A stretch of DNA of 64,000 nt from an uncultured Gemmatimonadaceae bacterium (GTDB lineage Bacteria; Gemmatimonadota; Gemmatimonadetes; Gemmatimonadales; Gemmatimonadaceae), in contig CAWHHI010000008.1 of NCBI GenBank assembly GCA_963829055.1, positions 224,001 to 288,000 of the forward strand, written 5' to 3'. The notes under the pieces were generated by a model. That model did not search any database and was not told the origin of the DNA. It saw only the letters and a list, made by a program, of their open reading frames with translations. Positions within the stretch are counted from its first letter, which is position 1. The number at the start of each line of letters is the position of its first letter. Positions 1 through 64,000 of this stretch are shown piece after piece. The position numbers were made by a program, and so were the translations under genes.

Positions 1-502
1 CTGCAGTGCGTCGTGCAGCGGCGCGAGCCCTCGGCCGCCGTCCTTCGTACTCGTTAGGTGCAGCGGGTAGCCGGCGCGCACGTGGTCGGCGAACATTGCC
101 TGCGCTTCCGACTCGCTCGCGAGGTCGACCTTGTTGACGACGATGCGCGCCGCCAGCGAGTTCGCCTCGGCGATCACGAGAAAGCGATCGAGCATCGCCG
201 GGTGGGGCGTCGGCTTCACGAGCGCGAACACGACGACCACCTGATCGACGTTCGCGGCGATGATCCGCTCACCGCGACCCGAACCAGGCTCCCGTCGCGC
301 CAGCTTCGAGCGCCGCGGGTGGATCTCCGCGATGACGAACCCGTCGCCGCGCGTCCTTCGGCTCGAGCTCGACCTCATCGCCGACAGCGAGCTTGAGCCC
401 ACCAAGCTTGACCCGGCCGCGGACGGAGCAGTCATACGTTAGGCCGTCGGCGCCAAGCACGCGCCAGATACCGCCAGTTCCCGATAGCGCTGTTCCGCGC
501 AT
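1..502 (-). CDS. rsgA: Ribosome small subunit-dependent GTPase A, 5' part (runs off left edge; apparent frameshift near 350)
   Basis: N-terminus CSVRGRVK..LAVGDEV continues in another frame as IAEIHPRRSKLAR...IIAANVDQVVVVFA...LDRFLVIAEA...IVVNKVDL (NKxD motif). Confidence 0.9.
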
Positions 503-521
503 CAGCGTGTGATCCAGTAGA

Positions 522-911
522 TCATTCGTCCCTCATGGCATCCCACCATCGCCGTGACGGACGGTTCGCCGATTGCTCGTTAATGAGCTCGTCCAGAATG
601 CGCCGGACCGCGTCGAGCTTCATCTCGCCAAGGGCCGCGCGCGCTGCGTCTTCCGTTGCGCCGTAGGCGAGAAAGTCAGTCTCCAGATGCCCCTCGATAC
701 CCTGCGAACCAACGCGTCGCCACCGCAGGAACAGGAAGTAGGCGCCGTACGGTCGCCCGGCGATCTCCGTCCTATCGACGACGATCTCCACGCTGTACGA
801 CATCCCGTCCGACCCCTCGAACGCCGCGGGTCTTGCATGCACGGCGCTGTACCCACCGATCGTGTTCGCGTCACCACGCGAATGATCGGGAGGCTGAAAG
901 CGGCCGGGCAC
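522..911 (-). CDS. Hypothetical protein (about 129 aa)
   Basis: GTG at 911, 2 nt after the proline dehydrogenase stop, in frame with ORF 522..1010; protein-like composition; sits between two same-strand housekeeping genes. Confidence 0.65.
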   Translation of the reverse strand: MPGRFQPPDHSRGDANTIGGYSAVHARPAAFEGSDGMSYSVEIVVDRTEIAGRPYGAYFLFLRWRRVGSQGIEGHLETDFLAYGATEDAARAALGEMKLDAVRRILDELINEQSANRPSRRWWDAMRDE

Positions 912-913
912 CG

Positions 914-1847: not shown

Positions 1848-1990
1848 GAGGCCTCGTGATCGGCGCGAGAGCGAGCTAGGCGAGTGAGAGAACGTCGTGT
1901 GTTAGCGGCACCGGCGCGACAGACGCCACTATCGGCGCGTAAATATACCCAGCCCTCTGGACCGCTGGTGCAAGATGGCGGGGCCCGGTT

Positions 1991-3709
1991 TCATGCAGGA
2001 CCCAAGCCGCACTGTCCGGGTAACGCCGTCGTCAGGCGGATTGGGCTGAGGCGTAGGGCTGTGCCAGCGGCACGCTCACCGACGTTCCAGGCCACGAGTC
2101 CGTCATCGCTTCGAGGATCGATCATGTAGGTGGCAAGCACGCCGAGCGGTTGCGTGAGACGCACGACGTAGCTTCCGGGCTCGATGCGCGTGTTGGCCTG
2201 CTGCCAGCGGCCCTCCACCCGAACACTCCGGCGATTCTGGAACGCCGTGGGTGACACGATCACCGAGTCGGAGGTGAACGACTGTGCGGTCGCCGAGCAC
2301 TCGCTGCGCGTGCGCTCGACCGTGATGCCGTGAAGCGCGAGCAGTTGCGCCGCGGTCGAATCCGCGGCGGGCAGCGCGAACCCCCACGCAGTCGGCGTCG
2401 ACATCGTCGGAACGAAGCGATCGTAGACGGGCATCTGCACGCGCCGATAGCTGCCCGTCCGTCGCATGCCGCGGCGCACGCCTGGTTCGGTGCGGAGCGT
2501 GTCGCCGGTGCGTTCGAGCGTTTCGACGATCACCTCACCGGTATAGGGCTTCGTGGTCAGATCTCCGCGAATCGGGATCTGCGCCGACGATGTGCCCGTT
2601 CCCCACGACGCCACCGCCGAATCCGCTCGCGCCGAGAGCGCGCGAATGCGCGCTCCACGCTCGGCCACGAGCGTGAGCAGCTCACTCACGAATGCGTACG
2701 TCGACGCCACGCGGCGAGGAAACGGATCGTGAGAATACGCTTCGCTCAACACGGACATGCGACCGCGTAGCGCGTAGTAGTTCGTCCCGTAGCGCGGGCG
2801 ATGATCGTAGGTGAACCATCCGCGGTCCGCGGAGTCCTGCGAGACGAAGTTGCCGTAGTCGAACGTCTCGTAGCCTCGTCGGGTTCGGACGCGGCGGCGA
2901 AGCTCCGGCAGCAGTGAGTCGCGCACGAACGCGCCACCGGAGAAGGCCGGCCCAATGTCGCCAGCTGGGTTGAGCGACGGGGCATACGTCAGCGCGTACC
3001 CGTGATAGCTGCCGTCGGTCGTGTGCAGATCGACGAAGAAGTCGGGATTCCAACGATTGAACGCACTGAGCGACGCGCGAGTTTCCGGCGCGTCGGCCTT
3101 CATGTAGTCGCGATTCAGATCGAAGCTCTGCGCATTCGGCCGCTGACCGACGAGCTCCGGCCCGTTCTGTGCTCCGCGATTCTGCGCCTGGGGCGCGAAA
3201 CGCTCGTTGCCGTCGGCATTGTAGATCGGCACGGCGATGAGCACGATGGAATCGAGCACGTTGCGCTTCTTGTCGAAGACGAGATCGCGCAGCAGTGCCT
3301 GCAACGCTTCTTTGCCCTCCACTTCGCCGGCGTGAATGTTCCCCTGCACGTACACCATCGGACGACCGAGAGCGCGCGCGGCGTCCGGCGTCGAGACCGG
3401 CGGCCGAGACGCGATCACGTACGGAATCTCCCGGCCCTCACTGGTCTTTCCGATGCTGCCTACGGCAATCGGTGCCCCGAGGCGTTTCAGAGAATCGATG
3501 AATGCCACGACGTCGGCATAGTGCGACGTCTCGGTGTAGTTCGTCAGCTCGGCGCGCGTGCGAGGAAGCCGGGCATCGGTCACCGGCGGCGGCACGGCGC
3601 CGGAAACGTTAGGCGCTGCTGCCGCGCTCGGGGTGGTTCGGGAGCAGGCGACGGCTCCGCCGAGTAATGGCACGACGAGAGCGGCCGCGACGACACGCGA
3701 TCGGAACAT
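1991..3709 (-). CDS. M14 family zinc carboxypeptidase, probable lipoprotein
   Basis: Zinc motif IHAGE, DLNRD, VDLHTTDG; signal peptide ending GGAVAC; start at 3709 (alternative 3742). Confidence 0.88.
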   Translation of the reverse strand: MFRSRVVAAALVVPLLGGAVACSRTTPSAAAAPNVSGAVPPPVTDARLPRTRAELTNYTETSHYADVVAFIDSLKRLGAPIAVGSIGKTSEGREIPYVIASRPPVSTPDAARALGRPMVYVQGNIHAGEVEGKEALQALLRDLVFDKKRNVLDSIVLIAVPIYNADGNERFAPQAQNRGAQNGPELVGQRPNAQSFDLNRDYMKADAPETRASLSAFNRWNPDFFVDLHTTDGSYHGYALTYAPSLNPAGDIGPAFSGGAFVRDSLLPELRRRVRTRRGYETFDYGNFVSQDSADRGWFTYDHRPRYGTNYYALRGRMSVLSEAYSHDPFPRRVASTYAFVSELLTLVAERGARIRALSARADSAVASWGTGTSSAQIPIRGDLTTKPYTGEVIVETLERTGDTLRTEPGVRRGMRRTGSYRRVQMPVYDRFVPTMSTPTAWGFALPAADSTAAQLLALHGITVERTRSECSATAQSFTSDSVIVSPTAFQNRRSVRVEGRWQQANTRIEPGSYVVRLTQPLGVLATYMIDPRSDDGLVAWNVGERAAGTALRLSPIRLTTALPGQCGLGPA

Positions 3710-3771
3710 GACGGGTGATTGAGAGAAGAGCGAACGTGGCATCAGTGTGCTTCCGGCGTCACCCGGCTGAG

Positions 3772-5934
3772 TCAGCCGCCTAGCGGATGGCCACGCTCCG
3801 GGTAGAAGCGACGGCCTTCACGAGCCATCTCAATGAGAAGCTGCGCCGGCGCGAACCTCGGCGCGCGGTCAGCGTTCAGGCCCTCGAGCGCGCGAACGAT
3901 TCGCTCGGTACCGAGGGAATCCACGTAGCGGAATGGGCCGCCGCGGAATGGCGGGAACCCGATGCCGAACACGGCGCCAACGTCACCGTCTCTCGGCGCG
4001 CGAAGCACGCCTTCCTGGAGACAGCGCGCCGCTTCGTTCACCATCGCGAGCACGCACCGGCGCTGAATCTCGTCCCCTGGCAACTCGGCTCGCCGTTGAC
4101 CCGTCGGCAGCAAGTCGTAGACAGACGGGTCGACGCCGCTCTTCTTGCCGGCGTCGTCGTACTTGTAGAAGCCGCTCTTCCCTTTTCGTCCGGTGCGCCC
4201 CGCCGACACTACACGCTGCAACGATTGCGACGGCGCGAGCCGAGCGCCGAAGGCATCGACCATGATCGCGCCGGACTTGCCGGCGATGTCGAGCCCGACC
4301 TCGTCGATCAGCGTGATGGGACCGACCGGGAATCCGAAGTCCACGAGCGCGCGATCCACGGCGTCGATCGCCACGCCCTCGTCCAGCAGGATGCCAGCCT
4401 CGTTGATGTAGGGCGCCAGGATGCGGTTCACGAAGAATCCAGGCGCGTCGTTCACCACGATGACCGTCTTGCCTAACGACTTGCCGTAGCTCACGACCGT
4501 CGCCGTCACTTCCGGCGCCGTCGTCGGCGTGGTGATGACCTCGAGCAACGGCATCTTCGTCACCGGCGAGAAGAAGTGCATCCCGATGACCCGCTCCGGC
4601 CGCTTCGACGCTTCGGCAATTCGTGCGATCGGGATGGTGCTCGTGTTCGACGCGAAGATGGACGTGGGCCTGGTGGCGGCTTCCGTCTCGCGGAGCACGG
4701 TCTGCTTCACGGCCAGGTCCTCGAACACGGCCTCGATGACCAGGTCGACGTTCTGAAAGCCCGCGTATTCGATCGTGCCGCCAACGAGCGACATGTAGTC
4801 GTCGAGCTGCTGACGGGTGATCTGCTTCTTCGTCAGGCGCTCGCGCAGGGTCTCGCGCACCGTGGCCAACCCCTTCCCCACCCGGGCGTGGTCGGCATCC
4901 TTGAGCCGGACGATCGTTCCCTGCGGCGCTGCGATGGACGCGATACCGGATCCCATGAAACCGGCGCCGAGGATGGCGAGCTTGCGAATCGGGAGCGGTG
5001 GAGGCGCCGGCTCGGCAACGCCCGGATCCTTCTTCAACGCCGTCGTCGCGAAGAAGAGGAACACGAGCTGCCGCGAGACCTCACTGACCGCGAGCTCGCC
5101 GAAGAGCCGAGCCTCCTCCCGATATCCGCGTTCACTGCCATGGGCAAAGCCGTTGGCGACAGCATCGAGCGCGGCGAGCGGCGCGGGGAAATGGCCACGC
5201 GTGCGCGCCAATACTTTCTCGCGCGCTTGCCGAATTACCAACGCGCGTCCAACGCGATTCTCATCGAGCAGCAGGTGACGAGCACCGTGCGGACCACTCG
5301 GCGCACCACGACGAAGCGCGCCGTCGGCCAGGGCGCGGGCGCGCGCAATCGCGATCTCGTCGAGGATGGCGGGGTGCACCAGCTCGTGCACGAGACCAAT
5401 CTGCAACGCCTTCCGGCCGCGCACGTTCTTCCCCGTGAGAATCATGTCGAGCGCAGCCTCGAGTCCGACGAGGCGCGGCAGACGCTGCGTTCCGCCACCT
5501 CCAGGGATCAGGCCGAGCTGCACTTCAGGGAGCGCGAATACCGTTTTCGGGGCATCGCTCGCGACGCGATAGGCGCAGGCGAGAGCAGCTTCGAGACCAC
5601 CGCCGAGGCAGGCGCCATTGATCGCCGCGACGACAGGTGTTCGAAGATTCTCCAACCGGTCGAGGAGCGCGTGCCCGTCGCGGCTCATCGCCTCTGCCTG
5701 CGATGACGTCTCGATCTGCAGGAACTCCTCGATGTCCGCTCCCGCCACCCAGACGTCCGGCTTGCCGCTGCGAATGACCGCTGCCTGGATCGCCGGGTCC
5801 CGCTCCAGCTGATCGAGCACGCGGGCAAATTCCTCACGCACGAGTCGCGTGAACGTGTTCACGGCCGCGTTAGGCACGTCGAGTGTCACGACAGCCACGC
5901 CGTCGCGCACGTCGAGCGAGAGCGTTGAGCTCAT
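3772..5934 (-). CDS. fadJ: Fatty acid oxidation complex alpha subunit (enoyl-CoA hydratase / 3-hydroxyacyl-CoA dehydrogenase)
   Basis: [58 protein letters not shown]; 720 aa. Confidence 0.93.
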
Positions 5935-5947
5935 TCCGCTTTCCGTA

Positions 5948-7969: not shown

Positions 7970-7971
7970 CG

Positions 7972-9696
7972 ATGACTGACGAGACTCGGGACGACGTCTC
8001 CTTGCCCACGGTCCGGCGAAAGCTCGACGCGGCGGACAATCCGGCAACGCATCGTGCGGCGCGGCTGGCGCGCCTCACCGCCGAACCGTTCGATGTGCTC
8101 ATCGTCGGCGGAGGCATCACGGGCGCGGGGATCGCGCGCGACGCGGCTATGCGCGGGTTGCGCACCGCGCTCGTCGAGCGTGACGACTTCGGAAGCGGCA
8201 CATCGAGTCGCTCGTCTCGGCTGGTACACGGCGGCGTGCGCTATCTCGAGCATGGGCATCTGCATCTGGTGTTCGAGTCCAGCCGTGAGCGGCGGACGCT
8301 GATGCGCATCGCACCTCACCTCGTGCGTCCGCTGCGATTCACCTGGCCCGTCTATCGTGGCAGCCGCATCCCGCTCTGGAAGTTGAGCGCCGGCCTGTTC
8401 ATGTACGATGCGCTCGCCGCGTTTCGCAATGTAGAAAGTCATCGTTCGCTCGAGGCGCGTGAGGTGCTCGCGCATGAACCGGCTCTGCGGCGCGATGGTC
8501 TCGTCGGCGGCGCCGAGTACTATGACGCGTCCACGGATGACGCGCGACTGACGCTGGCGAACGTCATTGATGCCGAGCACCATGGCGGCGTCGCGGTGAA
8601 TCACGTGTCGGTGGTGCGGCTGCTGCGTGAGGGCGGTCGCGTGGTCGGCGCGGCGATTCGCGAAGCGCCGGATGGACCGGAGGCAGAAATTCGCGCGCGC
8701 GTCGTCGTGAATGCGACGGGGGCCTGGACCGACGCGCTTCGGGGCATGGACACGGGCGACACCGGCGACATCGGCGCGAGCGGCAACGGTGCGGTGCGCG
8801 GGACCAAGGGCGTACACATCGCGGTGTCGCGGGAGCGACTGGCAACTCAGGCTGCCCTGACGCTGCTCTCTCCCATCGATGGACGCGTCATGTTCGCGCT
8901 GCCGTCGACGGCGACGACGATCATCGGCACGACGGACACGCCAACCGATGAGCGACCAGAAGAGGTGCGTGCGTCGCCGGCGGACATCGAGTACCTGCTC
9001 GCGGCGGCGAACTCGTTCTTCCCGGCAGCGCATCTCACGCCCGACGACGTGATCGCGGCGTGGGCAGGGATTCGTCCGCTCGTCGCGTCGGGGTTCACGC
9101 GCGACCCGGCGAGTGCCTCACGCGAGCACCGCATCGACCGCAGCGCATCGGGGCTCATCTCCGTGTCCGGCGGCAAGCTCACCACGTTTCGATCGATGGC
9201 GGCGGAGGTCGTGGACGTGGTAGAGCAGTCGTTGGGGAAGCGCCCGTCGCGATCACGGACGGATCGCGTGCCGCTGCCCGGTGGTGACATGCGGGCGCTC
9301 GACGAGCTCCGTCGCGCGGCGGAGCTGGAAGTGGGCGACGCCGCCGTCGCGCGCCGGCTCGTGGAGGCGCACGGCACGCGGTGGCGCGACGTCTCCGCGC
9401 TGACGGCGGAGGAGCCGGCGTTGGCGCGCCGCATCGTGCGCGACCTGCCGTACCTGCTGGCGGAAGTCGTCTACGCGGCGGAGCGCGAGATGGCGGTGAC
9501 GCTCGCCGACGTGCTCGTTAGGCGTCTCCGTATCGCGTACGAGATGGCGGACCACGGCCGCTCCGCCTCGCGCGTCGCGACCGCGGTACTTGCCGGCCGG
9601 CTCGGCTGGGACAACGCGCGTGCTCGCGTCGAGATCATGCGCTACGACGACGAGGTCACGCGGATCTTTGGCGCACCCGCGACAACGCTCGCGTGA
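7972..9696 (+). CDS. glpD: FAD-dependent glycerol-3-phosphate dehydrogenase
   Basis: DVLIVGGGITGAGIARDAAMRG, GTSSRSSRLVHGGVRYLE, KGVH, WAGIRPL, GGKLTTFR; start uncertain; the 7273 ORF start is spurious. Confidence 0.9.
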   Translation: MTDETRDDVSLPTVRRKLDAADNPATHRAARLARLTAEPFDVLIVGGGITGAGIARDAAMRGLRTALVERDDFGSGTSSRSSRLVHGGVRYLEHGHLHLVFESSRERRTLMRIAPHLVRPLRFTWPVYRGSRIPLWKLSAGLFMYDALAAFRNVESHRSLEAREVLAHEPALRRDGLVGGAEYYDASTDDARLTLANVIDAEHHGGVAVNHVSVVRLLREGGRVVGAAIREAPDGPEAEIRARVVVNATGAWTDALRGMDTGDTGDIGASGNGAVRGTKGVHIAVSRERLATQAALTLLSPIDGRVMFALPSTATTIIGTTDTPTDERPEEVRASPADIEYLLAAANSFFPAAHLTPDDVIAAWAGIRPLVASGFTRDPASASREHRIDRSASGLISVSGGKLTTFRSMAAEVVDVVEQSLGKRPSRSRTDRVPLPGGDMRALDELRRAAELEVGDAAVARRLVEAHGTRWRDVSALTAEEPALARRIVRDLPYLLAEVVYAAEREMAVTLADVLVRRLRIAYEMADHGRSASRVATAVLAGRLGWDNARARVEIMRYDDEVTRIFGAPATTLA

Positions 9697-10332: not shown

Positions 10333-11135
10333 ATGATACGCATCGAGCAACACGGCGACGTCACGCGGCTCGAAATGTCGAGCCTGTGGAGTCGCGCGAT
10401 CGGCTATACGGCGAGCGCGTATCTCGTGCGTGGGGTGCTCATTGATTGCGGGTTTCATGGCGTTGGTCGCGAGGTGCACGCGATGCTCGCGGAAACGCGT
10501 CCGCGCGGCCTGCTCATCACGCACTACCACGAGGACCACGCGGGGAACGTGGAGCGCGTGGCTCGACTTGGCATTCCCATCGCGGCATCGACCGACACGC
10601 TTCGCCCGGCTGCGGTCGCCGGCTCCGATTCGGTTGTACCGCCGGGTCACGTGGGGAGCCGCTCCTGCGTTGCGCTCCAACGTGACTCCGTTTCTGAGAC
10701 GATGCGCTCACGCTGATTGCCGCGCCGGGGCACTCGGTGGACCATCACGTGGTGTGGGACGCGACCGACGGGACGCTGTTCGGCGGCGACCTGTACCTCG
10801 GCGTCAAGGTGCGCGTGGCGCACCCGGGCGAGGACCCGCGGGTGCTGGCGGCGACGCTTCGCCGCATCGCCGCGTTAGGCCCGACGCGACTGTTCGATGC
10901 GCACCGTGGGTACGTGGCGAACCCTGCTCCGCTGCTGCTTGCGAAAGCGGACTGGATCGATGAGACGATTGCTTCTATCGAACGGCGGATTGCCGACGGC
11001 GCATCGGATTCCGCGATCGTGCGAGAGTTGTTTGGCGGGGAGTCTATGCCGGGACGCTTCTCTGGTGGCGACTACTCGCGCACGAACTTTGTTCGGGCGG
11101 TCAGGACGGGGACTGGGGACGGGTACGGGGACTGA
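10333..11135 (+). CDS. Metallo-beta-lactamase fold hydrolase (frameshifted between about 10600 and 10740)
   Basis: LIDCG, THYHEDHAG, GHSVDH, LFGGDL, LFDAHRG spread over three frames. Confidence 0.85.
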
Positions 11136-16396: not shown

Positions 16397-17483
16397 GCGC
16401 ACTGCCGCGGCCGTCGCTTTCAGACGCCGCTGTCGAGACCACCGCGCATTCGCTCGAACAACGGATCAAGGCGCAGGCGTACGGACTCGGCTTCGATCTC
16501 GTTGGCATCACGCGCACGGGACCGGCACCGACGTCCGGCCGGTTCGAGCAATGGCTTCGCGCGGGCCGCGCCGGCGACATGCACTATCTCGAGCGCGGCG
16601 CGGAGAAGCGTCGCGACTCGCGACGTCCGGTGGACGGTGCACGCAGCGCGGTGGTCGTCGGTCTCGACTACGGCGGCCGCGAGCCCGCGGGACCAGTCGC
16701 TCGTTATGCACGCGGCGCGGACTATCACGACGTCATGGAAGCGCGCCTGCGGGAGCTTCACCGTCGCCTGAATGAATGGGTCGGCGCGCCGGTGCGCGGA
16801 AAGGCGTACGTCGATACCGGGCCGATTCTGGAGCGCGACCTCGCGCGCCGTGCCGGGCTCGGATGGTTCGGCAAGAACACGATGCTCATCAACCCACGCA
16901 GCGGATCGTTCTTCTTTCTCGGTGCGCTGCTGCTCGACGTCGAACTCGCGCCGGACACGCCGTTCGAGAGCGAGCATTGCGGGCACTGCACGCGGTGTCT
17001 CGATGCGTGTCCGACCGACGCGCTGCTGGAGCCGGGCGTGCTCGATGCGCGGCGCTGCATCTCGTACCTGACGATCGAGCTCAAGGGCGAGATCCCGGTG
17101 GAGTTGCGCGAGGCGATCGGCGGTCTCGTCTACGGATGCGACATCTGTCAGGACGTGTGCCCGTGGAACATCAAGTTCGCGAAGCTCCTGCCCGACGAGT
17201 CTCCGTTCGCGCCGCGTGAGGCGTTAGGCGGCAAGGACGCGCGGTCGCTCGCCCGCGACGTGTTAGGCATGACTCAGGAGGAGTTCAGCCGCGCCTTCAA
17301 GGGCTCGCCGATGAAGCGCGCGAAGTTGCGCGGGCTGAAGCGCAACGCGACCGTGGTGCTCGGCAACGTCGGAACGCGCGGACGACACCGACGTGCTCAC
17401 GCGTTCGCTCGACGACCGAGGAGCCGCTCGTACGCGAACATGCGGCGTGGGCACTGAGGCGGCTCAGCGCGCGACACAGCTAA
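16393..17483 (+). CDS. queG: tRNA epoxyqueuosine(34) reductase (C-terminal HEAT repeat frameshifted near 17376 and 17418)
   Basis: VARYARGADYH, YVDTGPILER, GWFGKN, CGHCTRCLDACPT, YGCDICQDVCPWN; tail EPLVREHAAWAL ends at TAA 17481-17483. Confidence 0.93.
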
Positions 17484-22256: not shown

Positions 22257-22270
22257 GAGCTCGCCCAGCA

Positions 22271-24497: not shown

Positions 24498-24512
24498 CGG
24501 TGGGCTGACGAC

Positions 24513-44002: not shown

Positions 44003-44070
44003 GACAGGATCCTCGGGTCGTTTCGTTAGGCAGTGAATGGCGTCGGACTGACGTGCAGCACGCTACGAAC

Positions 44071-44115
44071 AGACTACACATCTCTGAGACTGTGCTCTTG
44101 AACGAACGGGCTGAC
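44071..44115 (-). promoter_or_regulatory. Candidate AraC-activated promoter of the GNAT gene
   Basis: Minus strand GTCAGCC-cgtt-CGTTCAAGAG, 18 nt, TAGTCT. Confidence 0.7.
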
Positions 44116-44135
44116 CTTTCGGCCGCGTGCGTCGC

Positions 44136-49300: not shown

Positions 49301-51961
49301 TCACTGCGGGTGCTCCCGCAGGAACCGCTCGAACGCGGGCGTGCCGCGGAGCACGAATAGCGAAGGTTCCATGGCATATCGGCGTGATGTGTATCCCCCG
49401 CTGGGGCTCGCGAGTCCGGCGGCCAGCCAGCGCACGGCCGTCTCGGGTTCGCCCAGGCGCGCGTAGACCGCCGCTGCGGAGCGTGGGAAGAAGACATCGG
49501 TGAGGTCGGGCCGCGACGCTGTGCGGCGCGCCGTCGCGAGCGCTGTTACAAGCGTGCGACGTGCCACAGCGGTATCTCCGACACCTGCCTCGGCGAGAGC
49601 GCGCTGAAGCAGCAGCGTTGGCGCGTACGGTCCGGTCAGCGGCCGCGACATCAGCAGGGTACGAATCGAGTCGTAATACACGCGCGCGCCGGCCGGCTCC
49701 CCGCGGTGGTGGAAGACGTCCGCTTTGATGCTGTAGTAGAACAACACGCTATCGTAAAGCGCGGTAATACCCAGCTCGCGCGCCGACAGCGCGACATACC
49801 GTGAACCGTACGCTCCGCCGATGTATGGCATGTACCCGAGCACGGTATTGTCGGGCCGGGAGACATGGGCGAGTGCACGGTCCAAAGTGCGCCGTTGGGT
49901 AGTCGTATCTTCAAGATTGAATGTCAGTTCCAGTAGTACCGCCCACCCTCGCGAGTCAGTCGAGTCGAGTGCGACGCTGGCGTCCGAGTAGCGGCGCGCG
50001 TCGTCCCATCGACGCATCATGACCGCCTCGTTCGCCACGAGCACAAGCGATCGCATGGAGCGTGGGTCGAGGACCGCAGCGCGTTTGGCAAGCGCATAAC
50101 CACTGTCGGCGTGCTGGCGCAGCAACAAAAGGATGCTTGCGCCGCGGAGAACGGCTGGATCATTGGGTGCTGCCGAGAGTGCCCGCGCGACCAGCGTATC
50201 GGCACTCGTGGTGTCGTGGTCGTAGTCAAATCGAAGACCGGCGAGTGCGAGAAGGACGCGCGGCTGACCGGGGGCGTGCACGAGCGCGCGATCGATGGTC
50301 GCGCGCGTGCGCGCCTCCGAGTCACGGTCAACGGTCGTGAAGATGGCCAGTGCGTAGTACACTGCTGCGAGCTCGCCCCACGCCTCGGCGAACATGGAGT
50401 CGAGTGCGACCGCGGTCTCGAACTCGGCTGCCGCTCGCTTCATCCCCTCTGTCGACGCTCCGTACGCGACCGCGTCCCACGCGGCGACGCCGCGCACCCA
50501 CGCCGCGAACGCTTCCGGACTATTCGTCATCCGCCGGGCGAGCGCAGCGCGGTCGTTAGGCCGGAGCTCGACGGCCAGCGCGTCGGCCACCTTCGTGGCG
50601 ATGTCACCCTGCGCGGTGAACGGGTCGCCCGGCGTGATCACCACCGGCGTTCCGGTCCAGCGGGTGGTGCCGGCCCGGGCGTCGACGAGCGTCGGCGTCA
50701 CCTGCGCGCGCCACACCCCACCGGCGTCCTTCGCCCAGCGCACCACGCCTTCGAGCAGCCACAGCACGCCGAGCTCGGCGCCGATCTGCTTCGCCGATTT
50801 CGTCGTCTGCCGGTACTGTGCGGCACTCTGCCGGTCGATGACGGCGAGCCCGGGGAGCGCGACCAGCTTCGCGGTCACCGCGTCGGTCAGCCCGTCGGTG
50901 AACACCGTCTGCTCGCTCGGACCGGCGTTCTCGAACGGCAGGACGGCTAGCATCACGGGGCCTGTCGGGTCGGCGACAACGGCCAAGCTCCGCCTCGTTC
51001 CCCACGCGTATGCCCCGGCCGCGACTGCGACGGTGAGAATGGCCGCAGCAATGCCGACCCACGGCCGCCGCGCCGGCCGCGGGCGGTGCTCGCCCGACCA
51101 GGCAGTCCCGTCGAGCACCGTCGAGCAGCTCGGCGGCTGACGCGGGGCGCTCGCGCCGGATCTTTCGCGAGGCATCCGCATCACGAGCGCGCCGAGCACC
51201 GACGGGACGCCGCTGCCTAACGGGCCGGTCGACGCGAGCGCCGGCGGCACTTCCGACATGTGCGCCGCGATCAGCTGCGGGGCCGTCGTCCTGCCGGCGA
51301 ACGGATGGCGGCCCGCGAGCAGCTCGTACGCGATCACACCCCACGCGTAGAGATCAGCGCGTGCGTCGACGTCGCCGCCCGCCGCCTGCTCCGGCGCCAT
51401 GTACGCCGGCGTCCCGAGCGACGTGCCCCGCTGCGTCAGCGTCGCGTCCGCCGGCGCCGTCCGCGCCGCCGAGAGCGCCTTCGCGATGCCAAAGTCGGTA
51501 ACGACCGCGGTGCCTGACGAGAGCAGCACGTTCGCCGGCTTGATGTCGCGGTGCACGATGCCGTGGGCGTGTGCATACCCGAGCGCACGCGCCACGTCAC
51601 GCAGAATACTCACCGCTTCGGACAGCGGCACAGGGCCGCGCGCGATGCGCGCCCGTAGGTCGTCGCCATCGACGAGCGGCATCGTATACCACGGCAACCC
51701 GTCGGCCGTCGCGCCGGCCGCGTGCACCGGCACGATGTGCGGCTCCTGCAGCGCGGCCGCGAGCCTGATCTCACGCGTGAAGCGCTCGGCACTCAAGCCT
51801 GCAGCGAGCTCGGGTGCTAGGACCTTCACAACGACGTCGCGGCCGAGCGCCTGGTCGCGCGCCACGAACACGCGGGACGTCCCCCCGCCCCCGAGCTCGC
51901 GCTCGAGCGTGAAGCCGGGGCCGAGCGACGTCTGGAGGTGCTGGCGGAGCGGATCGCTCAA
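49301..51961 (-). CDS. Ser/Thr protein kinase with TM helix, TolB-like domain and TPR repeats
   Basis: ELGGGG, VVVK, HRDIKPAN, DFG, GTPAYMAPE, LAVLPFEN, FTDGLTD; compensating indels at 51120-51180; TTG start at 51961 (alternative 52009). Confidence 0.92.
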   Translation of the reverse strand: MSDPLRQHLQTSLGPGFTLERELGGGGTSRVFVARDQALGRDVVVKVLAPELAAGLSAERFTREIRLAAALQEPHIVPVHAAGATADGLPWYTMPLVDGDDLRARIARGPVPLSEAVSILRDVARALGYAHAHGIVHRDIKPANVLLSSGTAVVTDFGIAKALSAARTAPADATLTQRGTSLGTPAYMAPEQAAGGDVDARADLYAWGVIAYELLAGRHPFAGRTTAPQLIAAHMSEVPPALASTGPLGSGVPSVLGALVMRMPRERSGASAPRQPPSCSTVLDGTAWSGEHRPRPARRPWVGIAAAILTVAVAAGAYAWGTRRSLAVVADPTGPVMLAVLPFENAGPSEQTVFTDGLTDAVTAKLVALPGLAVIDRQSAAQYRQTTKSAKQIGAELGVLWLLEGVVRWAKDAGGVWRAQVTPTLVDARAGTTRWTGTPVVITPGDPFTAQGDIATKVADALAVELRPNDRAALARRMTNSPEAFAAWVRGVAAWDAVAYGASTEGMKRAAAEFETAVALDSMFAEAWGELAAVYYALAIFTTVDRDSEARTRATIDRALVHAPGQPRVLLALAGLRFDYDHDTTSADTLVARALSAAPNDPAVLRGASILLLLRQHADSGYALAKRAAVLDPRSMRSLVLVANEAVMMRRWDDARRYSDASVALDSTDSRGWAVLLELTFNLEDTTTQRRTLDRALAHVSRPDNTVLGYMPYIGGAYGSRYVALSARELGITALYDSVLFYYSIKADVFHHRGEPAGARVYYDSIRTLLMSRPLTGPYAPTLLLQRALAEAGVGDTAVARRTLVTALATARRTASRPDLTDVFFPRSAAAVYARLGEPETAVRWLAAGLASPSGGYTSRRYAMEPSLFVLRGTPAFERFLREHPQ

Positions 51962-52095
51962 GGTGGGACCGGCGAGGGACTGCGAGCGCGCAGACGCGCC
52001 AGTGAACATACGCCGAGGTTCACGACGTGTCCACTCGGGCCGGCGGCGCTTAGTGGTCCTGCCTAACTACCGCACGAACGTTCGGCGTCACCATT

Positions 52096-55987: not shown

Positions 55988-56013
55988 CGGTCGTCTCCGT
56001 AGTGGAAGAGCCA

Positions 56014-56166
56014 TGTCATTCCGAGCGGAGCCGCGAAGCGGCGCGGAGTGCCCTCTGGGCGCATCGAGGAATCGCGATCGTCCCGGTAGAGGGCTCTCTA
56101 CCTACACGGTCTCGATTCCTCGACTCGCTCCGCTCGCTCGGAATGACAACTCCGCTCGGAATGACA
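56014..56166. repeat. Palindromic REP/MITE-like element, copy 1, with a duplicated right arm
   Basis: TGTCATTCCGAGCG...CGAGGAATC..GGTAGAGGGCTCTCTACC..GATTCCTCG...CGCTCGGAATGACA. Confidence 0.88.
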
Positions 56167-56173
56167 ACGCTAG

Positions 56174-58090
56174 TTAGGCACCACGACCCGGGCGTCCACC
56201 GCGGGTCGGTCCACGCGTGATGAACGTGAGCACGAGCCGGCCGTTCACGAGCGCGTCGCGGTCCAGCGGCGTCAGAACCGTCGATCCTGACGCCGCCGTG
56301 GACACCGGACCGATCAGCTGCTGCACGACGCGCGCACGGCCGCCCGCATCGCGGCGACGCAACACGACCGCCTGCACCCTCGTCGCCGGGACGCCGCTCA
56401 CCGTGACGGCGTGTCGAAGCGTGCTCGTCACGGGGTCGAACGTGAACGCTGCACGCGCCATTGCCGCGGTCGGACCACCCTGCGCCGCACGCGCCGTCGT
56501 GGAAAACGCCACTGCCGTCGGCGCATGGCCGTTCACGAGCGGCGGGGTCGAGAACGGAGGCCGACGCCGCGGCCCGAGCTGCTCGAACGCGTAGCCTAAC
56601 GACACGAGTCTGACATCACTGAACGCGCGGCCGAGCAGCTCGATGCCGACCGGGAGGCCATCACTCGTGAAGCCCGCGGGAACGCTCAGCGCCGGAAGAC
56701 CCGTCTGTGCACTCAGCCCGCAGGTACTGCCCAGCTGAACGTCGCCGGGAAATACCGGCCTGCGCCGCATCGTCGGATAGACGAGCGCGTCGAGTCCCAG
56801 GCTGTCCATGATGGCGACGACGCGCGCGCGCAGCACCGCCTGACGCGCGAGCGCTCGTCGATACGGCGCGTTGTCACGCGTCCCCAGACTGTCGGCGAGC
56901 TTGAAGCGCGCCTCGAGTGCACTGCTCTCGAGTCCACTGGCGAGAATGTCGCCGATGGACTTGACCGACTCACCCGGCGTCTTCGCCAGGTAATCGATCA
57001 TGTCGTACTTGTGCTCGAAGTTGATGACGCTCGTTCCTGCGACGAGACTGTCGAAGTTCGCGATGTCGATGCGCACGGTGTCGGCGCCCGCAGCCTTCAT
57101 CGCGCGAACCGCGGCCCGCACCGTGTCGATGATGTCGCCGTCGGCATCGGTCATGTAGTTCGCGAGAATTCCGATCCGTGCGCCGCGTAAGGCATCTGCC
57201 CGCAAGGAATCGGTGAAGCGTGGAATCGGGCGTCCGACCAGCACCCGCGTCGAAGAGTCCGCGGAGTCCGCGCCGACGGAGACGTCGAGCGCGATCGCGA
57301 GATCGGTGATCGTCCGCGCGAGCGGGCCGGGAATGTCCTGCGTGTGCGAGAGCGGCATGACGCCGCTGCGGCTCACGAGTCCTTGCGTGGGCCGCAGTCC
57401 GGCGAGACTCCCGAACGCCGACGGAATGCGAATCGATCCACACGTGTCGGATCCCCAACCGACCGCAGCGAAGCTCGCGGCGATCGCCGCGCCGGTGCCA
57501 CCGCTCGAGCCACCGGGACAGCGTCGCGGATCGTACGGATTCCGCGTTTGCCCGCCGAGGGAGCTGATCGTCGTGATGCCTGCGGCCAACTCGTGCATGT
57601 TCGACTTGCCGAGGATGATCGCGCCGGCGTCGCGCAGCCTGCGGACGACGAATGCATCGTCACGCGTCTGATGATTCGCGAGCGCGAGCGAGCCGCCGCT
57701 GGTTGGCAGATCGGCGGTGTCGAAGTTGTCCTTGATGATGACGGGAATCCCGTGCAGCGGGCCCCTCACCTTGCCACTGCGTCGCTCGGCGTCGAGCCGT
57801 CGCGCGTCCGCGCGCGCGTTCGGGTTGAGCCGGATCATGGAGTTGAGCTGCGGCCCGCGGTGATCATACTCCGCGATCCGGGCGAGATACGCATCCACGA
57901 GCGCGACGGCCGTGGTGCGGCCGTCGGTCATGTCGCGCTGCAGATCGGTTATCGTCGCCTCGTGTACCTCGACACCTCGCGGCTGTTGCGCTGCCTGGGC
58001 CGGCAGGATACCGACAGCCGAGCCTATCGCGATGACGAGCGTGACCGCCGCTCGGCGGGGATGCGTTCGGCGAACGAGATCTGATGACAC
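56174..58090 (-). CDS. Secreted amidase with C-terminal CHRD-like domain
   Basis: Signal peptide AQA, GPLHGIPVIIKDN, PGGSSGGT, GSDTCGSIRIP, GLPALSVP; about 115-aa beta-rich tail. Confidence 0.9.
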   Translation of the reverse strand: MSSDLVRRTHPRRAAVTLVIAIGSAVGILPAQAAQQPRGVEVHEATITDLQRDMTDGRTTAVALVDAYLARIAEYDHRGPQLNSMIRLNPNARADARRLDAERRSGKVRGPLHGIPVIIKDNFDTADLPTSGGSLALANHQTRDDAFVVRRLRDAGAIILGKSNMHELAAGITTISSLGGQTRNPYDPRRCPGGSSGGTGAAIAASFAAVGWGSDTCGSIRIPSAFGSLAGLRPTQGLVSRSGVMPLSHTQDIPGPLARTITDLAIALDVSVGADSADSSTRVLVGRPIPRFTDSLRADALRGARIGILANYMTDADGDIIDTVRAAVRAMKAAGADTVRIDIANFDSLVAGTSVINFEHKYDMIDYLAKTPGESVKSIGDILASGLESSALEARFKLADSLGTRDNAPYRRALARQAVLRARVVAIMDSLGLDALVYPTMRRRPVFPGDVQLGSTCGLSAQTGLPALSVPAGFTSDGLPVGIELLGRAFSDVRLVSLGYAFEQLGPRRRPPFSTPPLVNGHAPTAVAFSTTARAAQGGPTAAMARAAFTFDPVTSTLRHAVTVSGVPATRVQAVVLRRRDAGGRARVVQQLIGPVSTAASGSTVLTPLDRDALVNGRLVLTFITRGPTRGGRPGRGA

Positions 58091-58132
58091 GCGCGCTCCT
58101 CGAGTCGTGGGTCGGCGCGCCTCACCAGAACC

Positions 58133-59800: not shown

Positions 59801-60081
59801 GATTCCACTCCGTCGCGCGATCGAGGTGATCAGGATGAATGCACCCGTGCGACCGCCAGGTCAGTCGGGCAACGGCGCGCCATACGTGGTGGATCCCCGC
59901 ACGCGAGCTCGACAGCAGCGTTGCGCGGCCGAGCGTCCCCGGGGCGACCGACGACGGGGTTTCCCCTATGGCCACTGCGGGGTTTTGCCGACTGCCTCCG
60001 CCCGAGAGGCGTGGTACTAGTTCAGAGCGCGGCTGGGTGTCGTCTGCCGGATGGACCGCGCGAAGACGATGGGGAGGTCTG

Positions 60082-60432: not shown

Positions 60433-60448
60433 CCAATCCGGAGGCAAC

Positions 60449-60910
60449 ATGCTGACCGATCCGCACTTCTCTCTGCCGCGCCTAACGCGCTTCGATACGC
60501 GGGACGACGACCTGAGCACGACGCCGCTTTCACGCATCGCCCGCGAGCATGGCGTCGAGGCCGAGGCCGTTGACACGATGCTCGAGATGCTGCCGGTCGC
60601 CGTGTTCATGGTGGACCGAGACGGCCATGTGGTCTACGCGAACGCCCAGGCTCGTACGTTGCGCGCGGATCGGCTGGATCGCATCCAGTGGGCGGTCACA
60701 CGCGCATTGCTCACGGAGGACGCGGTGCGCGAAGACGACATCGAGCTTCTCGCAGACGGAAATCCGCGGCGCTGGTTGAGCGTCCTCGTGACCCCGCTTC
60801 GAACGCCAGGCGTCGGAATCACCGCCGCGTTCGTGGTGATTTCCGACGTGACGGCCCGCAAGCGGCTGGATGGCTGGACGCCCGTGATCGAGTCGCTCGT
60901 GAATCTCTGA
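60449..60910 (+). CDS. Stand-alone PAS domain protein
   Basis: LEMLPVAVFMVDRDGHVVYANAQA, ISDVTARK; GGAGG RBS. Confidence 0.8.
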   Translation: MLTDPHFSLPRLTRFDTRDDDLSTTPLSRIAREHGVEAEAVDTMLEMLPVAVFMVDRDGHVVYANAQARTLRADRLDRIQWAVTRALLTEDAVREDDIELLADGNPRRWLSVLVTPLRTPGVGITAAFVVISDVTARKRLDGWTPVIESLVNL

Positions 60911-60917
60911 GCACGGC

Positions 60918-61086
60918 TGTCATTCCGAGCGGAGCGTCGAAGCGCGAGTCGAGGAGGGTTGTCATTCCGAGCGGAGCCGCGAAGCGGCGGAGTCGAGGAA
61001 TCGAGACCATCCTGGTAGAGGGCTCTCTACCCATCACAGTCGCGATTCCTCGACTCCGCGCCTTCGGCGCTCCGCTCGGAATGACA
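60918..61086. repeat. Palindromic REP/MITE-like element, copy 2, with a duplicated left arm
   Basis: Same termini and the same GGTAGAGGGCTCTCTACC core as 56014-56166; between convergent genes. Confidence 0.88.
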
Positions 61087-61093
61087 ACCGCTC

Positions 61094-62986
61094 CTATGAC
61101 TCGGCGGCCATCGTCTCGAGCGCCTCCCAGCGCGCCATCGATTCCGCAATCTCGGCATCGAGCGTCTCGAGCCGTTGCTTCGCGCTGACCACCGCTGCGC
61201 CATCTCGCAGGAACGCCGGGTCTCCGAGAGACGCGTAGAGCGCCTCCCGCTCTCGCTCCAACGCATCGATACGATCCGGCAGCGCCGTCAGCTCCGCCTT
61301 GTCACTGAAGGAGAGACGTCGCCGCTTCTCCGTCCGCCGCGGTGCGCGCGGTGTCGGTGGCGGCGCCGCCGGAGCAACCTTCGCGCGACGCGGCGGGCGC
61401 TGGCGAATCCAGTCGCTGTACCCGCCCACGTACTCACCGACGCGTCCGTCTTCCTCCATCACCAGCGTGCTCGTGACGACGTTGTCGAGAAACGCGCGAT
61501 CGTGGCTGACGAGCAGGAGCGTCCCCGAGAACTCGAGCAGCAGATCCTCCAGCAGATCGAGCGTCTCGATGTCGAGGTCGTTCGTCGGCTCATCGAGGAC
61601 GAGCACGTTGAACGCTCGCGTGAACAGCCGCGCGAGCAGCAGTCGATTGCGCTCACCGCCCGAGAGCGCACGAACGGGTGTGCGAGCGCGATCCGGCGGG
61701 AACAGGAAATCCTGCAGATATCCGTTGACGTGCTTGCGCCCACCGCCGACGTCCACGAAATCCGCGCCGTCCGCGATGCTCTCGAACACGGTGCGCTCGG
61801 GATCGAGCTGCTCGCGCAGCTGATCGAAGTACGCGATCTCCAACCCGGTGCCGGTGCGCACCGTGCCCGCGTTAGGCTCGAGCTCGCCGAGCAGCAGGCG
61901 GAGCAGCGTGGTCTTGCCGGACCCGTTTCGACCGATGATGCCGACGCGATCACCGCGCGTGATCGTCGTGCTGAAATCGCGCACGATGGTGCGCTCGCCG
62001 TGCGCGAACGTCACGTCCCGCGCCTCGAATACGAGACGCCCCGACCGCTCGGCCTCCGCCGCCTGTAACTTCACGGTCCCAGTCCTGTCGCGTCGCGCAC
62101 CTCGTTCCCGTCGCAACGCCTCGAGCGCGCGGACGCGTCCTTCGTTTCGAGTTCGCCGAGCCTGAATCCCCGTGCGGATCCAGACCTCCTCCTTCGCGAG
62201 CTTCTTGTCGAACTCCGCCCACTCGCGCCCCTCGGCCGCGAGCGCGGCTTCCTTCCGCTCGAGGTACGACGCGTAGTCGGTGCCCCAGTCGACGAGCTGC
62301 CCGCGGTCGAGCTCCACGATTCGCGTCGCGACGCGGCGCAGGAACGCGCGATCGTGCGTCACGAACAGCAGTGTCGTTCCGTCGTCGATGAGGAACTCCT
62401 CCAGCCACTCGATCGCCTCGATGTCGAGATGGTTCGTGGGCTCGTCGAGCAGCAGGACGTCGGGGTGACCAACGAGGGCGCGCGCCAGCAGCGTCTGACG
62501 CTTCCGTCCGCCTGACGCGCGCGCGAACGGCGCATCGGCGTCGAGCCCGAGGCGCAGCAACACCGTGTCGACGCGCGACTGAATCTCCCAGGCACGCGCG
62601 GCGTCGAGTGCGTGATGGAGCCGGTCCAATTCGCGAACGGCGGCATCGTTGCCGCCGACGGCAACGTCGTGACTCGCCTGGTGATACCGCGCGATGAGTC
62701 GTCCGGTCTCGCCCAGCCCGGCGGCGACGACGTCGAACGTCGTACCCTCGATGTCCCCGGGAACTTCCTGCTCGAGCCGGGCGACGGTGATGCCAGTTTG
62801 CCGGACAACCGCCCCGGAATCGGGAAGGGTGCTACCATCCAGGAGCCGCATGAGCGTGCTTTTCCCGGCACCATTGCGACCGAGGACGCACACGCGCTCT
62901 CCACGCTCGATCGCGAGGTCGGCGTGGTCGAGCACCGGCGGTCCTCCGAACGCAATGCTGACTTCGCGGATACTTATTACAGCCAT
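61094..62986 (-). CDS. uup: ABC-F family ATPase Uup
   Basis: Two ABC domains (GRNGAGKST, GRNGSGKTT), LDEPTNHLD, LDEPTNDLD, linker EEVWIRTGIQARRTRNEGRVRALE, C-terminal coiled coil. Confidence 0.92.
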   Translation of the reverse strand: MAVISIREVSIAFGGPPVLDHADLAIERGERVCVLGRNGAGKSTLMRLLDGSTLPDSGAVVRQTGITVARLEQEVPGDIEGTTFDVVAAGLGETGRLIARYHQASHDVAVGGNDAAVRELDRLHHALDAARAWEIQSRVDTVLLRLGLDADAPFARASGGRKRQTLLARALVGHPDVLLLDEPTNHLDIEAIEWLEEFLIDDGTTLLFVTHDRAFLRRVATRIVELDRGQLVDWGTDYASYLERKEAALAAEGREWAEFDKKLAKEEVWIRTGIQARRTRNEGRVRALEALRRERGARRDRTGTVKLQAAEAERSGRLVFEARDVTFAHGERTIVRDFSTTITRGDRVGIIGRNGSGKTTLLRLLLGELEPNAGTVRTGTGLEIAYFDQLREQLDPERTVFESIADGADFVDVGGGRKHVNGYLQDFLFPPDRARTPVRALSGGERNRLLLARLFTRAFNVLVLDEPTNDLDIETLDLLEDLLLEFSGTLLLVSHDRAFLDNVVTSTLVMEEDGRVGEYVGGYSDWIRQRPPRRAKVAPAAPPPTPRAPRRTEKRRRLSFSDKAELTALPDRIDALEREREALYASLGDPAFLRDGAAVVSAKQRLETLDAEIAESMARWEALETMAAES

Positions 62987-63022
62987 TCACTCACCCCCAC
63001 CCCGGTCCCGTTCTCGTAGCAC

Positions 63023-64000
63023 ATGCACATTCTGTTCGGCTATCTCAAACAATACTGGAAGCTGGTGCTGGTGGCTCTGCTATTGGCCACGATCAACCAG
63101 GTCTTCTCGCTGCTCGACCCGCTCATCTTCCGCCACATCATCGACAGCTACGCGACGCGCTACGCCGACTACACGACGAGCCAGTTCTTCCGCGGCGTGT
63201 CGCTGCTGCTGCTCGCGGCGGTCGGCGTGGCGTTCGTCTCGCGCGTCGCCAAGAACTTTCAGGACTACTGCGTCAACCTCGTCACGCAGCGCCTTGGCGC
63301 CCAGCTCTACTCCGACGGCATCCGCCACTCGCTCGCGCTGCCGTACTCCGTGTTCGAGGATCAGCGGAGCGGTGAGACGTTAGGCAAGCTGCAGAAGGCG
63401 CGCTCGGACTCCGAGCGGTTCGTCGCGGCGGCGGTCAACGTCGTGTTCACGACGATCGTCGGCGTGGTGTTCGTCATGATCTACGCGTGGAAAGTACACT
63501 GGTCGATAGCGCCCGCGTTCCTGCTGACGGTCCCCTTGCTCGGCGTCCTCAGCTCCGTGTTGAGCAAGCGCATCAAGGAGATTCAGAAGGTCATCGTCGC
63601 CGAGACGACCGCGCTCGCCGGCAGCACGACCGAGTCGCTTCGAAATATCGAGCTCGTGAAGAGCCTCGGGTTGGCCGAGCAGGAGGTGCAGCGGCTGAAC
63701 GGGACGACGCAGAAGATCCTGAAGCTCGAGCTCAAGAAGGTGCGCTACCTGCGGAGCCTCAGCTTCATCCAGGGCACCGCGGTCAACTTCCTGAGGACGT
63801 GCATCCTGTTTCTGATGCTCTACCTCATCTTCGACCGACAGATCACCGTCGGGCAGTTCTTCTCGCTGCTCATCTACTCGTTCTTCATCTTCGGTCCGCT
63901 CCAGGAGCTGGGGAACGTCATCAACATCTATCGCGAGACCGAAGCGTCGATGGCGAACTTCGAGGCCGTGCTCGCGATGCCGCTCGATCCCAAGCCCACG
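63023..64000 (+). CDS. ABC exporter, fused permease/ATPase, 5' part (runs off right edge)
   Basis: Open frame from ATG 63023: MHILFGYLKQYWKLVLVALLLATINQVFSLLDP..., TTESLRNIELVKSLG, ITVGQ. Confidence 0.88.
   Translation, partial: MHILFGYLKQYWKLVLVALLLATINQVFSLLDPLIFRHIIDSYATRYADYTTSQFFRGVSLLLLAAVGVAFVSRVAKNFQDYCVNLVTQRLGAQLYSDGIRHSLALPYSVFEDQRSGETLGKLQKARSDSERFVAAAVNVVFTTIVGVVFVMIYAWKVHWSIAPAFLLTVPLLGVLSSVLSKRIKEIQKVIVAETTALAGSTTESLRNIELVKSLGLAEQEVQRLNGTTQKILKLELKKVRYLRSLSFIQGTAVNFLRTCILFLMLYLIFDRQITVGQFFSLLIYSFFIFGPLQELGNVINIYRETEASMANFEAVLAMPLDPKPT

Follow-up and report, generated by a model that had tools for sequence, protein, structure and literature searches.

An octamer written thousands of times into the genes of two soil phyla, with copies kept apart: a possible uptake-sequence-like tag

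Introduction

Why one short word should recur throughout ordinary genes is the question raised by a stretch of 64,000 nucleotides (the window; G000:C8:224001-288000) from G000, the genome of an uncultured Gemmatimonadaceae bacterium (assembly GCA_963829055.1). The word is the heptamer GTTAGGC, mostly as the octamer CGTTAGGC, and the genes of the window (32 of 38 proteins) are ordinary ones for metabolism, transport and regulation. The answer reached here is that soil bacteria of two unrelated phyla carry the same word in thousands of copies, largely in genes, and that these copies stay clear of one another. We favour, at about an even chance, a tag that resembles uptake sequences and is maintained by bias in DNA uptake and recombination, like the DNA uptake sequence (DUS) and the uptake signal sequence (USS).

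A preliminary description, made from the letters of the window, had reported the over-representation. Its counts proved exact: GTTAGGC occurs 33 times on the plus strand and 16 times on the minus strand, at the places listed, together with nine CGTTAGG[T/G/A] variants. The octamer accounts for 44 of the 49 heptamers, and G precedes all 58 TTAGG/CCTAA of the window. Dinucleotide shuffles gave a mean of 2.28 and a maximum of six heptamers (100 shuffles). The start at 438 was corrected, as a variant lies further left at 52-59, and the strand split, although right for the window, is only local (2,547/2,457 in the genome). Copies lie mostly within genes, as had been stated: 33 of 49 are intragenic, two lie over stop codons and 14 fall between genes called by us, some of these probably in uncalled 5' ends. 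No Rfam match was found in the window. What the preliminary description had not seen is that copies avoid each other, that a second phylum has the word and that the word equals the attC core of integrons. It knew of no account of the word for this lineage; a literature search, with most subscription papers and supplements outside it, likewise yielded none.

Enrichment and coding context

In G000 (7.78 Mb) GTTAGGC occurs 5,630 times and CGTTAGGC 5,004 times, on 20 of 20 contigs. Measured against Markov nulls of order 2 and order 3, they rank first among words of k = 5-8, with 27-fold and 49-fold enrichment, respectively, at order 2. Unmasked order-5 and order-6 nulls gave ratios of about 1 (GTTAGGC, 5,630 versus 5,495; CGTTAGGC, 5,004 versus 4,755/5,066) because the sub-words themselves consist of the motif (TTAGG belongs to GTTAGG in 7,103 of 7,392 cases). 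A motif-masked null expects 17-23 copies of CGTTAGGC, that is, an enrichment of about 220-290-fold, and the over-representation proposed from the window therefore holds genome-wide. An assembly or base-calling artefact was ruled out by the presence of the word in dozens of other assemblies and by independent short-read contigs that span copies with 0-3 differences (X1, 49756-50978; X9, 43961-44495).

Coding context was analysed with 7,133 genes that we called ourselves (75% coding), in an assembly that contains frameshifts. The octamer is found in all four stop-free frames (1,310, 450, 608 and 906 copies), with 399 copies straddling gene ends and 1,331 between called genes. In the respective frames it occupies 22, 11, 20 and 57% of the places permitted by the protein, 17-79 times the codon-usage expectation. 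Of 2,808 TTA codons, 1,915 lie within GTTAGG; among stop codons, 325 of 897 TAA (as CCTAAC) and 248 of 1,840 TAG lie within the word. Sense and antisense intragenic copies are similar in number (1,760 versus 1,514). The TTA share, the synonymous use of four frames, the sense/antisense parity and the conserved sites described below uphold the earlier proposal of a signal at the level of DNA that persists in spite of codon usage. The codon-opportunity and tripeptide analyses led to rejection of a bias in amino acids or codons as the sole cause.

The word is non-palindromic, lies on both strands and reaches 0.64-1.4 copies per kb in motif-rich genomes. Beyond one or two flanking positions, no information was detected within 40 bases of G000 copies; a repeat, repetitive extragenic palindromic (REP) or RNA element was rejected on this ground and for want of an Rfam match. 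A check for replichore skew found none in G000 (1,614 versus 1,641; rho 0.01, n = 145 windows), a test of limited power given the weak GC skew of the draft. Density is low in genes of atypical third-position GC content (0.18-0.37 per kb), and two stretches of 37-50 kb with foreign-looking genes have zero copies. The two largest word-free stretches (C6:~10,000-54,000 and C11:~7,000-41,000) carry housekeeping genes that by eye are acidobacterial-like and rhizobial-like, and are probably chimeric or contaminant pieces of the assembly.

Spacing of copies and the variant code

Gaps between G000 copies occur at 0.23 of random expectation at 10-100 bp and at 0.49 at 100-200 bp, compared with 0.76-1.52 and a minimum of 0.67, respectively, for control 8-mers (80 of 88 frequency-matched words). 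The pair correlation starts at about 0.2 and climbs in a smooth ramp, reaching 1 at 350-400 bp with an exponential scale of 180-190 bp; a step fits worse. Same-orientation, convergent and divergent pairs avoid one another equally. Neither helical phasing nor periodicity at 4-20 bp was observed. The use of codon opportunities rises with distance from another copy, from 4% (46 of 1,190) below 100 bp through 11% at 100-200 bp and 19% at 200-300 bp to 24-34% above 300 bp. Observed pairs closer than 200 bp amount to 0.12-0.45 of those in a simulation that redistributed the used sites over the real synonymous opportunities; protein constraints therefore do not explain the avoidance.

Enriched one-letter variants share this behaviour. 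The words TGTTAGGC, GGTTAGGC, CGTTAGGT, CGTTAGGG and CGTTATGC are enriched 14-74-fold in G000, and 7-8% of them lie within 150 bp of a perfect site versus a background of 17%. Avoidance is less clear for AGTTAGGC (11%) and CGTTAGGA (14%), and is absent for the abundant unenriched neighbours CGTCAGGC, CGTGAGGC, CGTTCGGC and CGTTGGGC (18-20%); some rare neighbour words are likewise low near perfect sites (8-13%), with small counts. The variants that share the avoidance appear to define a binding code YGTTA(G/t)G(C/t/g), with an invariant G-T-T-A-x-G.

Range across genomes

Among 201 Gemmatimonadaceae genomes (including the unpublished G013, G055, G056 and G154), 39 contain at least 1,000 copies, another 38 contain 100-999 and the other 124 stay below 100 (median 17). 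One genus combines three rich members (G070, G170 and G202) with a poor one (G128, 66 copies). Elsewhere in the Gemmatimonadales, genus g111 has 181-1,061 copies (five of five genomes) and g26/g28 have 177-561; outside the order at most 70 copies were counted (62 genomes). These wider tallies include the unpublished G013, G385, G412 and G482; nothing is claimed from unpublished genomes by themselves. The word is patchy within Gemmatimonadales. A check across Gemmatimonadota had been proposed in the preliminary description. In a FadB tree built by a quick method from 55 of 76 loci (21 short or partial loci were left out), at least two changes between rich and poor states are needed.

A three-copy mixed-orientation pattern, which detects dense genomes only, was searched in 185,579 species genomes and returned 34 loci from two groups only, 16 titled Gemmatimonadaceae/Gemmatimonadota and 18 titled Chthoniobacterales, Spartobacteria or Verrucomicrobiae. 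Five motif-rich Verrucomicrobiota genomes hold 2,512-4,562 copies each. Of 121 Chthoniobacterales genomes three have at least 2,000 copies and eight have 189-948, and other Verrucomicrobiota have at most 104 (200 genomes). The identity of one marker protein to that of the Chthoniobacterales genome G219 is 72-91% in rich Chthoniobacterales and 45-58% in poor ones, suggesting that the motif-rich members form one clade. Here the word takes the longer form TCGTTAGGC (1,547 copies in 2.67 Mb of G219, about six expected), with the invariant core and tolerated changes of G000, plus TCGTTAGTC. Avoidance is weaker in G219, at about 0.5 below 100 bp.

The proteome composition follows the local form of the word in each phylum. 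In G219 the tripeptides PND, PNE and SLG are 2.9, 2.7 and 2.0 times as frequent as their reverses, and PNA, PNG and PNV 0.7-1.2 times; in G000 all five PN[ADEGV] tripeptides are at 1.5-2.0 times their reverses.

Conservation and turnover of sites

When Chthoniobacterales loci of 77% identity are aligned, the same position holds the site in 89 of 142 cases (17% for all 8-mers), and in Gemmatimonadaceae loci in 11 of 22 (10% for all 8-mers). Around fadB of the window, rich relatives of at least 75% identity keep the word in 32 of 48 alignments of G000 sites (versus 17-21%), and those below 75% in five of 29. These figures are descriptive and not independent, since the loci share ancestry and some of the places recur. 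Motif-poor homologues have ordinary codons in the same columns, and sites therefore arise by substitution; by this comparison gains often involve two or three changes. Relatives lacking the private sites at 437 and 9516 have other copies 190-970 bp away; in place of 9516 they carry copies at window 8546, 9032 or 9230, a local turnover.

Relation to integron attC sites

Many of the few copies in motif-poor relatives follow one another on the same strand at intervals of about 550 bp; the ones retrieved proved to be attC sites belonging to cassette arrays. Of the attC R' ends, 36 of 41 in motif-poor Gemmatimonadales are CGTTAGGC, and six of nine in motif-poor Chthoniobacterales are TCGTTAGGC, the local form. 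In either group, therefore, the R' end seen most often at attC sites of motif-poor relatives is the word itself, which also matches the R' box consensus as given, GTTRRRY (PMC7923331). GTTAGAC makes up five of the 41 ends, yet it is unenriched in G000 (observed/expected 1.1). By a rough estimate, a chance match to some known signal would have a probability of a few per cent for a single origin of the word, and a higher one given the many words screened; coincidence may lie behind the identity.

Genomic copies show no attC pairing, as inverted pairs at the R'' distance of 50-150 bp are depleted and no R''/L hairpin was found at them. In G000 only about ten attC-like sites, chosen by eye, were recognized. 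The integron integrase IntI is present in G000 (just over the cut-off) and in four of five rich Chthoniobacterales, was not found in G223, the densest of these, and is equally common in motif-poor genomes (24 of 41 over the cut-off); its distribution does not track the word. A region of G000 (C20:119,000-209,000) encodes a divergent IntI (265.7 bits) and has attC-like sites about 10 kb or more apart, with no tight array; their R'' box is GCCTAACG, compared with GCCTAACA in motif-poor relatives.

Phages

Viral loci were collected with two-copy patterns, and 38 of 68 contain only the two selecting copies; in the viral search the triple pattern gave no match and a 9-mer pair gave one (three copies in 17.6 kb). 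Two high-GC phage contigs carry 43 copies in 41 kb and 26 in 28.5 kb (about one per kb), in the latter inside terminase, portal, protease and capsid genes. As a control, the temperate phages HP1 and Aaphi23 of USS hosts have 17 USS cores each (0.53 and 0.40 per kb) and three and two reversed USS, respectively. Since temperate phages of USS hosts carry USS, copies in phages fit uptake as well as an intracellular reader.

Two viral contigs (L360:2465-8042 and L321:6195-8254) show same-strand runs about 300-450 bp apart that resemble attC cassette arrays on phage, of which only three sites passed the hairpin test. A near-complete 32 kb phage of 46% GC (G346; L311, L318, L323, L332) has eight CGTTAGGC, against 0 for the control, although two of the eight are those by which the search picked it. 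Possibly another host lineage carries the word; otherwise the copies are due to chance.

Search for a reader protein

G000 was compared in both directions with 2.67 of the 3.94 Mb (68%) of G219, and shared genes were filtered by identity, coverage, paralogues and membrane helices and judged by eye from the N-terminal sequence only. Among the matches listed, no convincing reader candidate was found in the approximately 1,140 G219 genes with a G000 match. The last 1.26 Mb of G219 contig C2 lay outside the comparison (save 1.3 kb at comEA), and a shared reader may therefore lie there. No methyltransferase family among the four sought occurs in all five rich genomes (PF01555 in three, PF02384 in four, PF02086 in three and PF00145 in one); G000 has no PF02384 and only a split D12-type match, an absence that is not proven because G000 is 86% complete. 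Genes for a pilus, ComEA, and DprA-like and ComM-like proteins are present in G000. ComEC was found in 77 of 80 genomes, including all 33 of the richest tested and 34 of 36 motif-poor ones.

Three candidate proteins were traced through 80 genomes and rejected. A 55-residue piece of a stand-alone pilin matched 24 of 80 genomes without tracking the word; its frameshifted gene lies with one other gene between two tRNA-Met genes (G000 C16:946,873-948,197; L370). A conserved unknown protein was present in 65 of 80 genomes. Another (G000 C5:243028-243639; L186:7015-7593), 61% identical between the phyla and without a Pfam or Atlas family, presumably resembles YaaA. It occurs in 14 of the 26 richest, three of eight intermediate and three of 26 poor genomes of the window's family, and in eight of ten rich versus one of ten poor Chthoniobacterales. 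It was not found in the near-complete rich genomes G061, G094, G183 and G209, and habitat and kinship can explain its loose association with motif-rich genomes; in G219 its gene adjoins a DNA-ligase-like gene. A Xer/dif half-site was also rejected, as a dif-like pattern gave a single G000 site (C16 near 560,800) unrelated to the word. In G219 (L297:59-1027) a ComEA-like HhH domain is fused behind a region that by eye resembles a staphylococcal-nuclease domain.

Proposed mechanism and alternatives

The orientation-free, saturating benefit over a few hundred bases, the graded code, the conservation and the reshaping of proteins point to a protein reading double-stranded DNA, and we infer that such a reader exists. 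It would bind YGTTA(G/t)G(C/t/g) in duplex DNA whichever way the site points, and a single site would serve a neighbourhood of about 200-400 bp in which a second adds almost nothing. Most likely it would act in natural transformation, like the DUS and USS receptors: DNA bearing the word would enter cells or recombine more often, and word-making alleles would spread and word-breaking ones be replaced wherever the protein permits. The length over which copies avoid each other would then correspond to how far the receptor scans or to the size of DNA fragments in soil. In Haemophilus influenzae two USS within 100 bp are reported to add no binding, and even USS spacing is attributed to molecular drive (PMC7811141). 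The sharing of the word by two phyla would require a transferred reader or a common outside model, and the commonest attC R' end would be the obvious model. A reader tuned to the attC core might even capture cassettes from environmental DNA of any phylum, writing the core into chromosomes and phages as a by-product; gene cassettes would present one attC end to it every 400-700 bp. The word would then be a shared exchange tag and not a self tag, a proposal that we regard as rather doubtful.

Several observations weigh against an uptake tag. Genes conserved across the phyla are not richer in the word (0.47-0.60 versus 0.57 per kb; rho -0.33, n = 66), and copies form no terminator pairs (one case) and show no core-gene excess, unlike DUS as described (PMC2397512). 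The avoidance scale is far below the Neisseria conversion tracts of 1.1-1.7 kb given in the same source. ComEC is near-universal in rich and poor genomes, so that competence genes do not discriminate, and it is missing from G181 (1,100 copies; 910 contigs). ComEA architectures differ between the phyla and are alike in motif-rich G070 and motif-poor G128, and past the N-terminal helix the G219 pilins (in the 68% compared) have no match in G000. Both high-GC phages, which may have other hosts, are denser in the word than G000.

The main alternative is an intracellular reader, a nucleoid, repair-loading or protective protein that covers a few hundred bases so that selection keeps one site per neighbourhood; variants are a non-polar self tag stopping a translocating nuclease and a chromosome-organising site. 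Orientation-free avoidance, conservation and full density in phage genes would follow, and one transferred cytoplasmic gene is simpler for two phyla than two unrelated pilus systems. We nevertheless consider it unlikely, though a serious contender: the shared genes listed for 68% of G219 gave no candidate, helical phasing is absent, the smooth ramp fits a fixed footprint worse, and an architectural site that is essential would hardly be expected to vary from about 100 to 7,800 copies between related genomes. A polar signal of the Chi or KOPS kind for recombination or segregation would account for a non-palindromic 8-mer within genes, but it is hardly credible given the lack of skew, in a test of limited power, and the equal avoidance of opposite- and same-orientation pairs. 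Of the analogies in the preliminary description, that with Chi accordingly falls, a modification site is weakened by the lack of a shared methyltransferase, and an uptake sequence fits best, although unproven.

Methylation of the word by a host enzyme, as for HIP1, with methyl-directed repair or methyl-dependent transformation as the drive and sites suppressing their neighbours, is improbable. Avoidance over a repair-tract length might follow from it. Against it stand the graded flank tolerance, unlike a methyltransferase site, and the absence of a methyltransferase family common to the five rich genomes, within the completeness of G000. [quoted passage not shown] Quite improbable, too, is that the integron integrase makes or uses the sites, which would then be an attG/attC-core footprint across the genome or a reserve of places where cassettes can land. 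The identity with the commonest R' end and the IntI of G000 and of four of five rich Chthoniobacterales speak for it; the copies are unpaired and arise by substitution, GTTAGAC occurs at attC ends but is unenriched in G000, motif-poor genomes have IntI just as often, and G223 yielded none. The attG consensus is given as only GWT, with insertions there disrupting genes (10.1101/2022.09.11.507474), so that such sites should be depleted; IntI is therefore an unlikely reader. Neutral context-dependent mutation or repair bias without a reader might deplete some one-step neighbours, as seen (CGTTGGGC, 0.7; TCGATAGGC, 0.1). It predicts neither avoidance restricted to enriched variants (7-11% versus the 17% background) nor amino-acid shifts, and gains often take two or three changes; this very unlikely reading is largely refuted.

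If the uptake reading is true, the word adds a third and a fourth lineage with sequence-specific DNA uptake, among abundant soil bacteria. One word across two phyla contradicts the idea of a kin-only tag, and the attC-core identity would link the specificity of uptake with the movement of integron cassettes. The reader, of whatever kind, can be captured directly, since its working distance (about 200-400 bp) follows from the avoidance curve and its binding code from the variants. The rich G070, G170 and G202 and the poor G128 offer a natural test of how such words arise.

Features of the window

Coordinates are collected in Table 1. Aligned to the copy at 4471, one more related locus has CGTTAGGT and another a gap, and motif-poor homologues have ordinary Leu/Ile-Gly codons at this place. 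Genes for cytochrome c, a COX1-family protein and a NorQ-type AAA protein (21435-26501) probably make up an operon for nitric oxide reductase. In soil runs the summed depth of contigs is very high at 51339-52005, 56008-56170 and 60677-62000, which comprise a kinase domain common to many organisms and intergenic repeats near 56,030-56,150 and 61,060. The words TGTCATT/GGAATGAC are mildly enriched throughout G000.

Table 1. Copies of the word in the window
Feature	Position	Strand	Details
Dispersed word (C)GTTAGGC	52..63385	both (.)	49 exact GTTAGGC and 9 CGTTAGG[T/G/A] variants, in ordinary metabolic/regulatory genes
Conserved copy in fadB (open reading frame, ORF, 3772-5934, -)	4471..4478	-	TCG TTA GGC (Ser-Leu-Gly); 13 related loci in the alignment keep it
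Conserved copy, antisense in fadB	5868..5875	+	GTG CCT AAC (Val-Pro-Asn); 12 related loci exact, 1 variant
Conserved copy, ORF 1991-3742 (M14 peptidase), upstream of called start	3607..3614	+	Kept in 5/5 motif-rich aligned loci
Copy GCG TTA GGC (Ala-Leu-Gly)	10873..10880	+	Kept in 2/2 aligned loci
Copy private to G000	437..444	+	Kept in 0/11 aligned loci; copy ~190 bp off in one relative
Copy private to G000, CTC GTT AGG (Leu-Val-Arg)	9516..9523	+	Kept in 0/12 aligned loci
Copy containing TAA stop of amidase gene 56174-58090 (-)	56173..56179	+	
Copy inside kinase gene	50554..50561	+	Independent short-read contig (run X1, record 3, 49756-50978), 0 differences
Close pair CGTTAGGC + TGTTAGGC in queG	17222..17268	+	39 bp apart; rare; also 28262/28290 and 49251/49292

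Comparison with known systems

Chi and KOPS are over-represented non-palindromic octamers, as is the word, and are skewed with replication direction; the word has neither such skew nor polarity in its spacing. HIP1 of cyanobacteria (GCGATCGC) is likewise a highly iterated, conserved 8-mer in coding DNA, proposed as an uptake tag (PMC13756078). The word differs from it in being non-palindromic, in lacking periodicity at 4-20 bp and a shared methyltransferase (four Pfam families in five rich genomes). With the integron attC R' box (GTTRRRY) it shares the exact eight or nine letters of the commonest R' end in motif-poor relatives; unlike attC, genomic copies are single, without an R''/L hairpin, in frame in genes and exclusive of GTTAGAC.

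The closest precedent is the DUS of Neisseriaceae (reader ComP) and the USS of Pasteurellaceae (reader predicted to be ComN/PpdA). For these, conserved cores with dialects are described and only the two families are named as known (PMC12616744), with a roughly twofold tripeptide effect (PMC2817400). The word differs in sequence and phyla, has no AT-rich flanks, is patchy within a family and is one word across phyla; its reader and uptake bias are proposed, and membership of DUS/USS is unproven. It would nonetheless seem to work like an uptake sequence. As with DUS and USS, it is a non-palindromic word of 8-10 bp, about once per kb, on both strands and in several frames, with variant forms around a fixed core, a form-specific tripeptide excess (2.0-2.9-fold) and conserved sites, spaced more evenly than random, scarce in foreign DNA and present in temperate phages.

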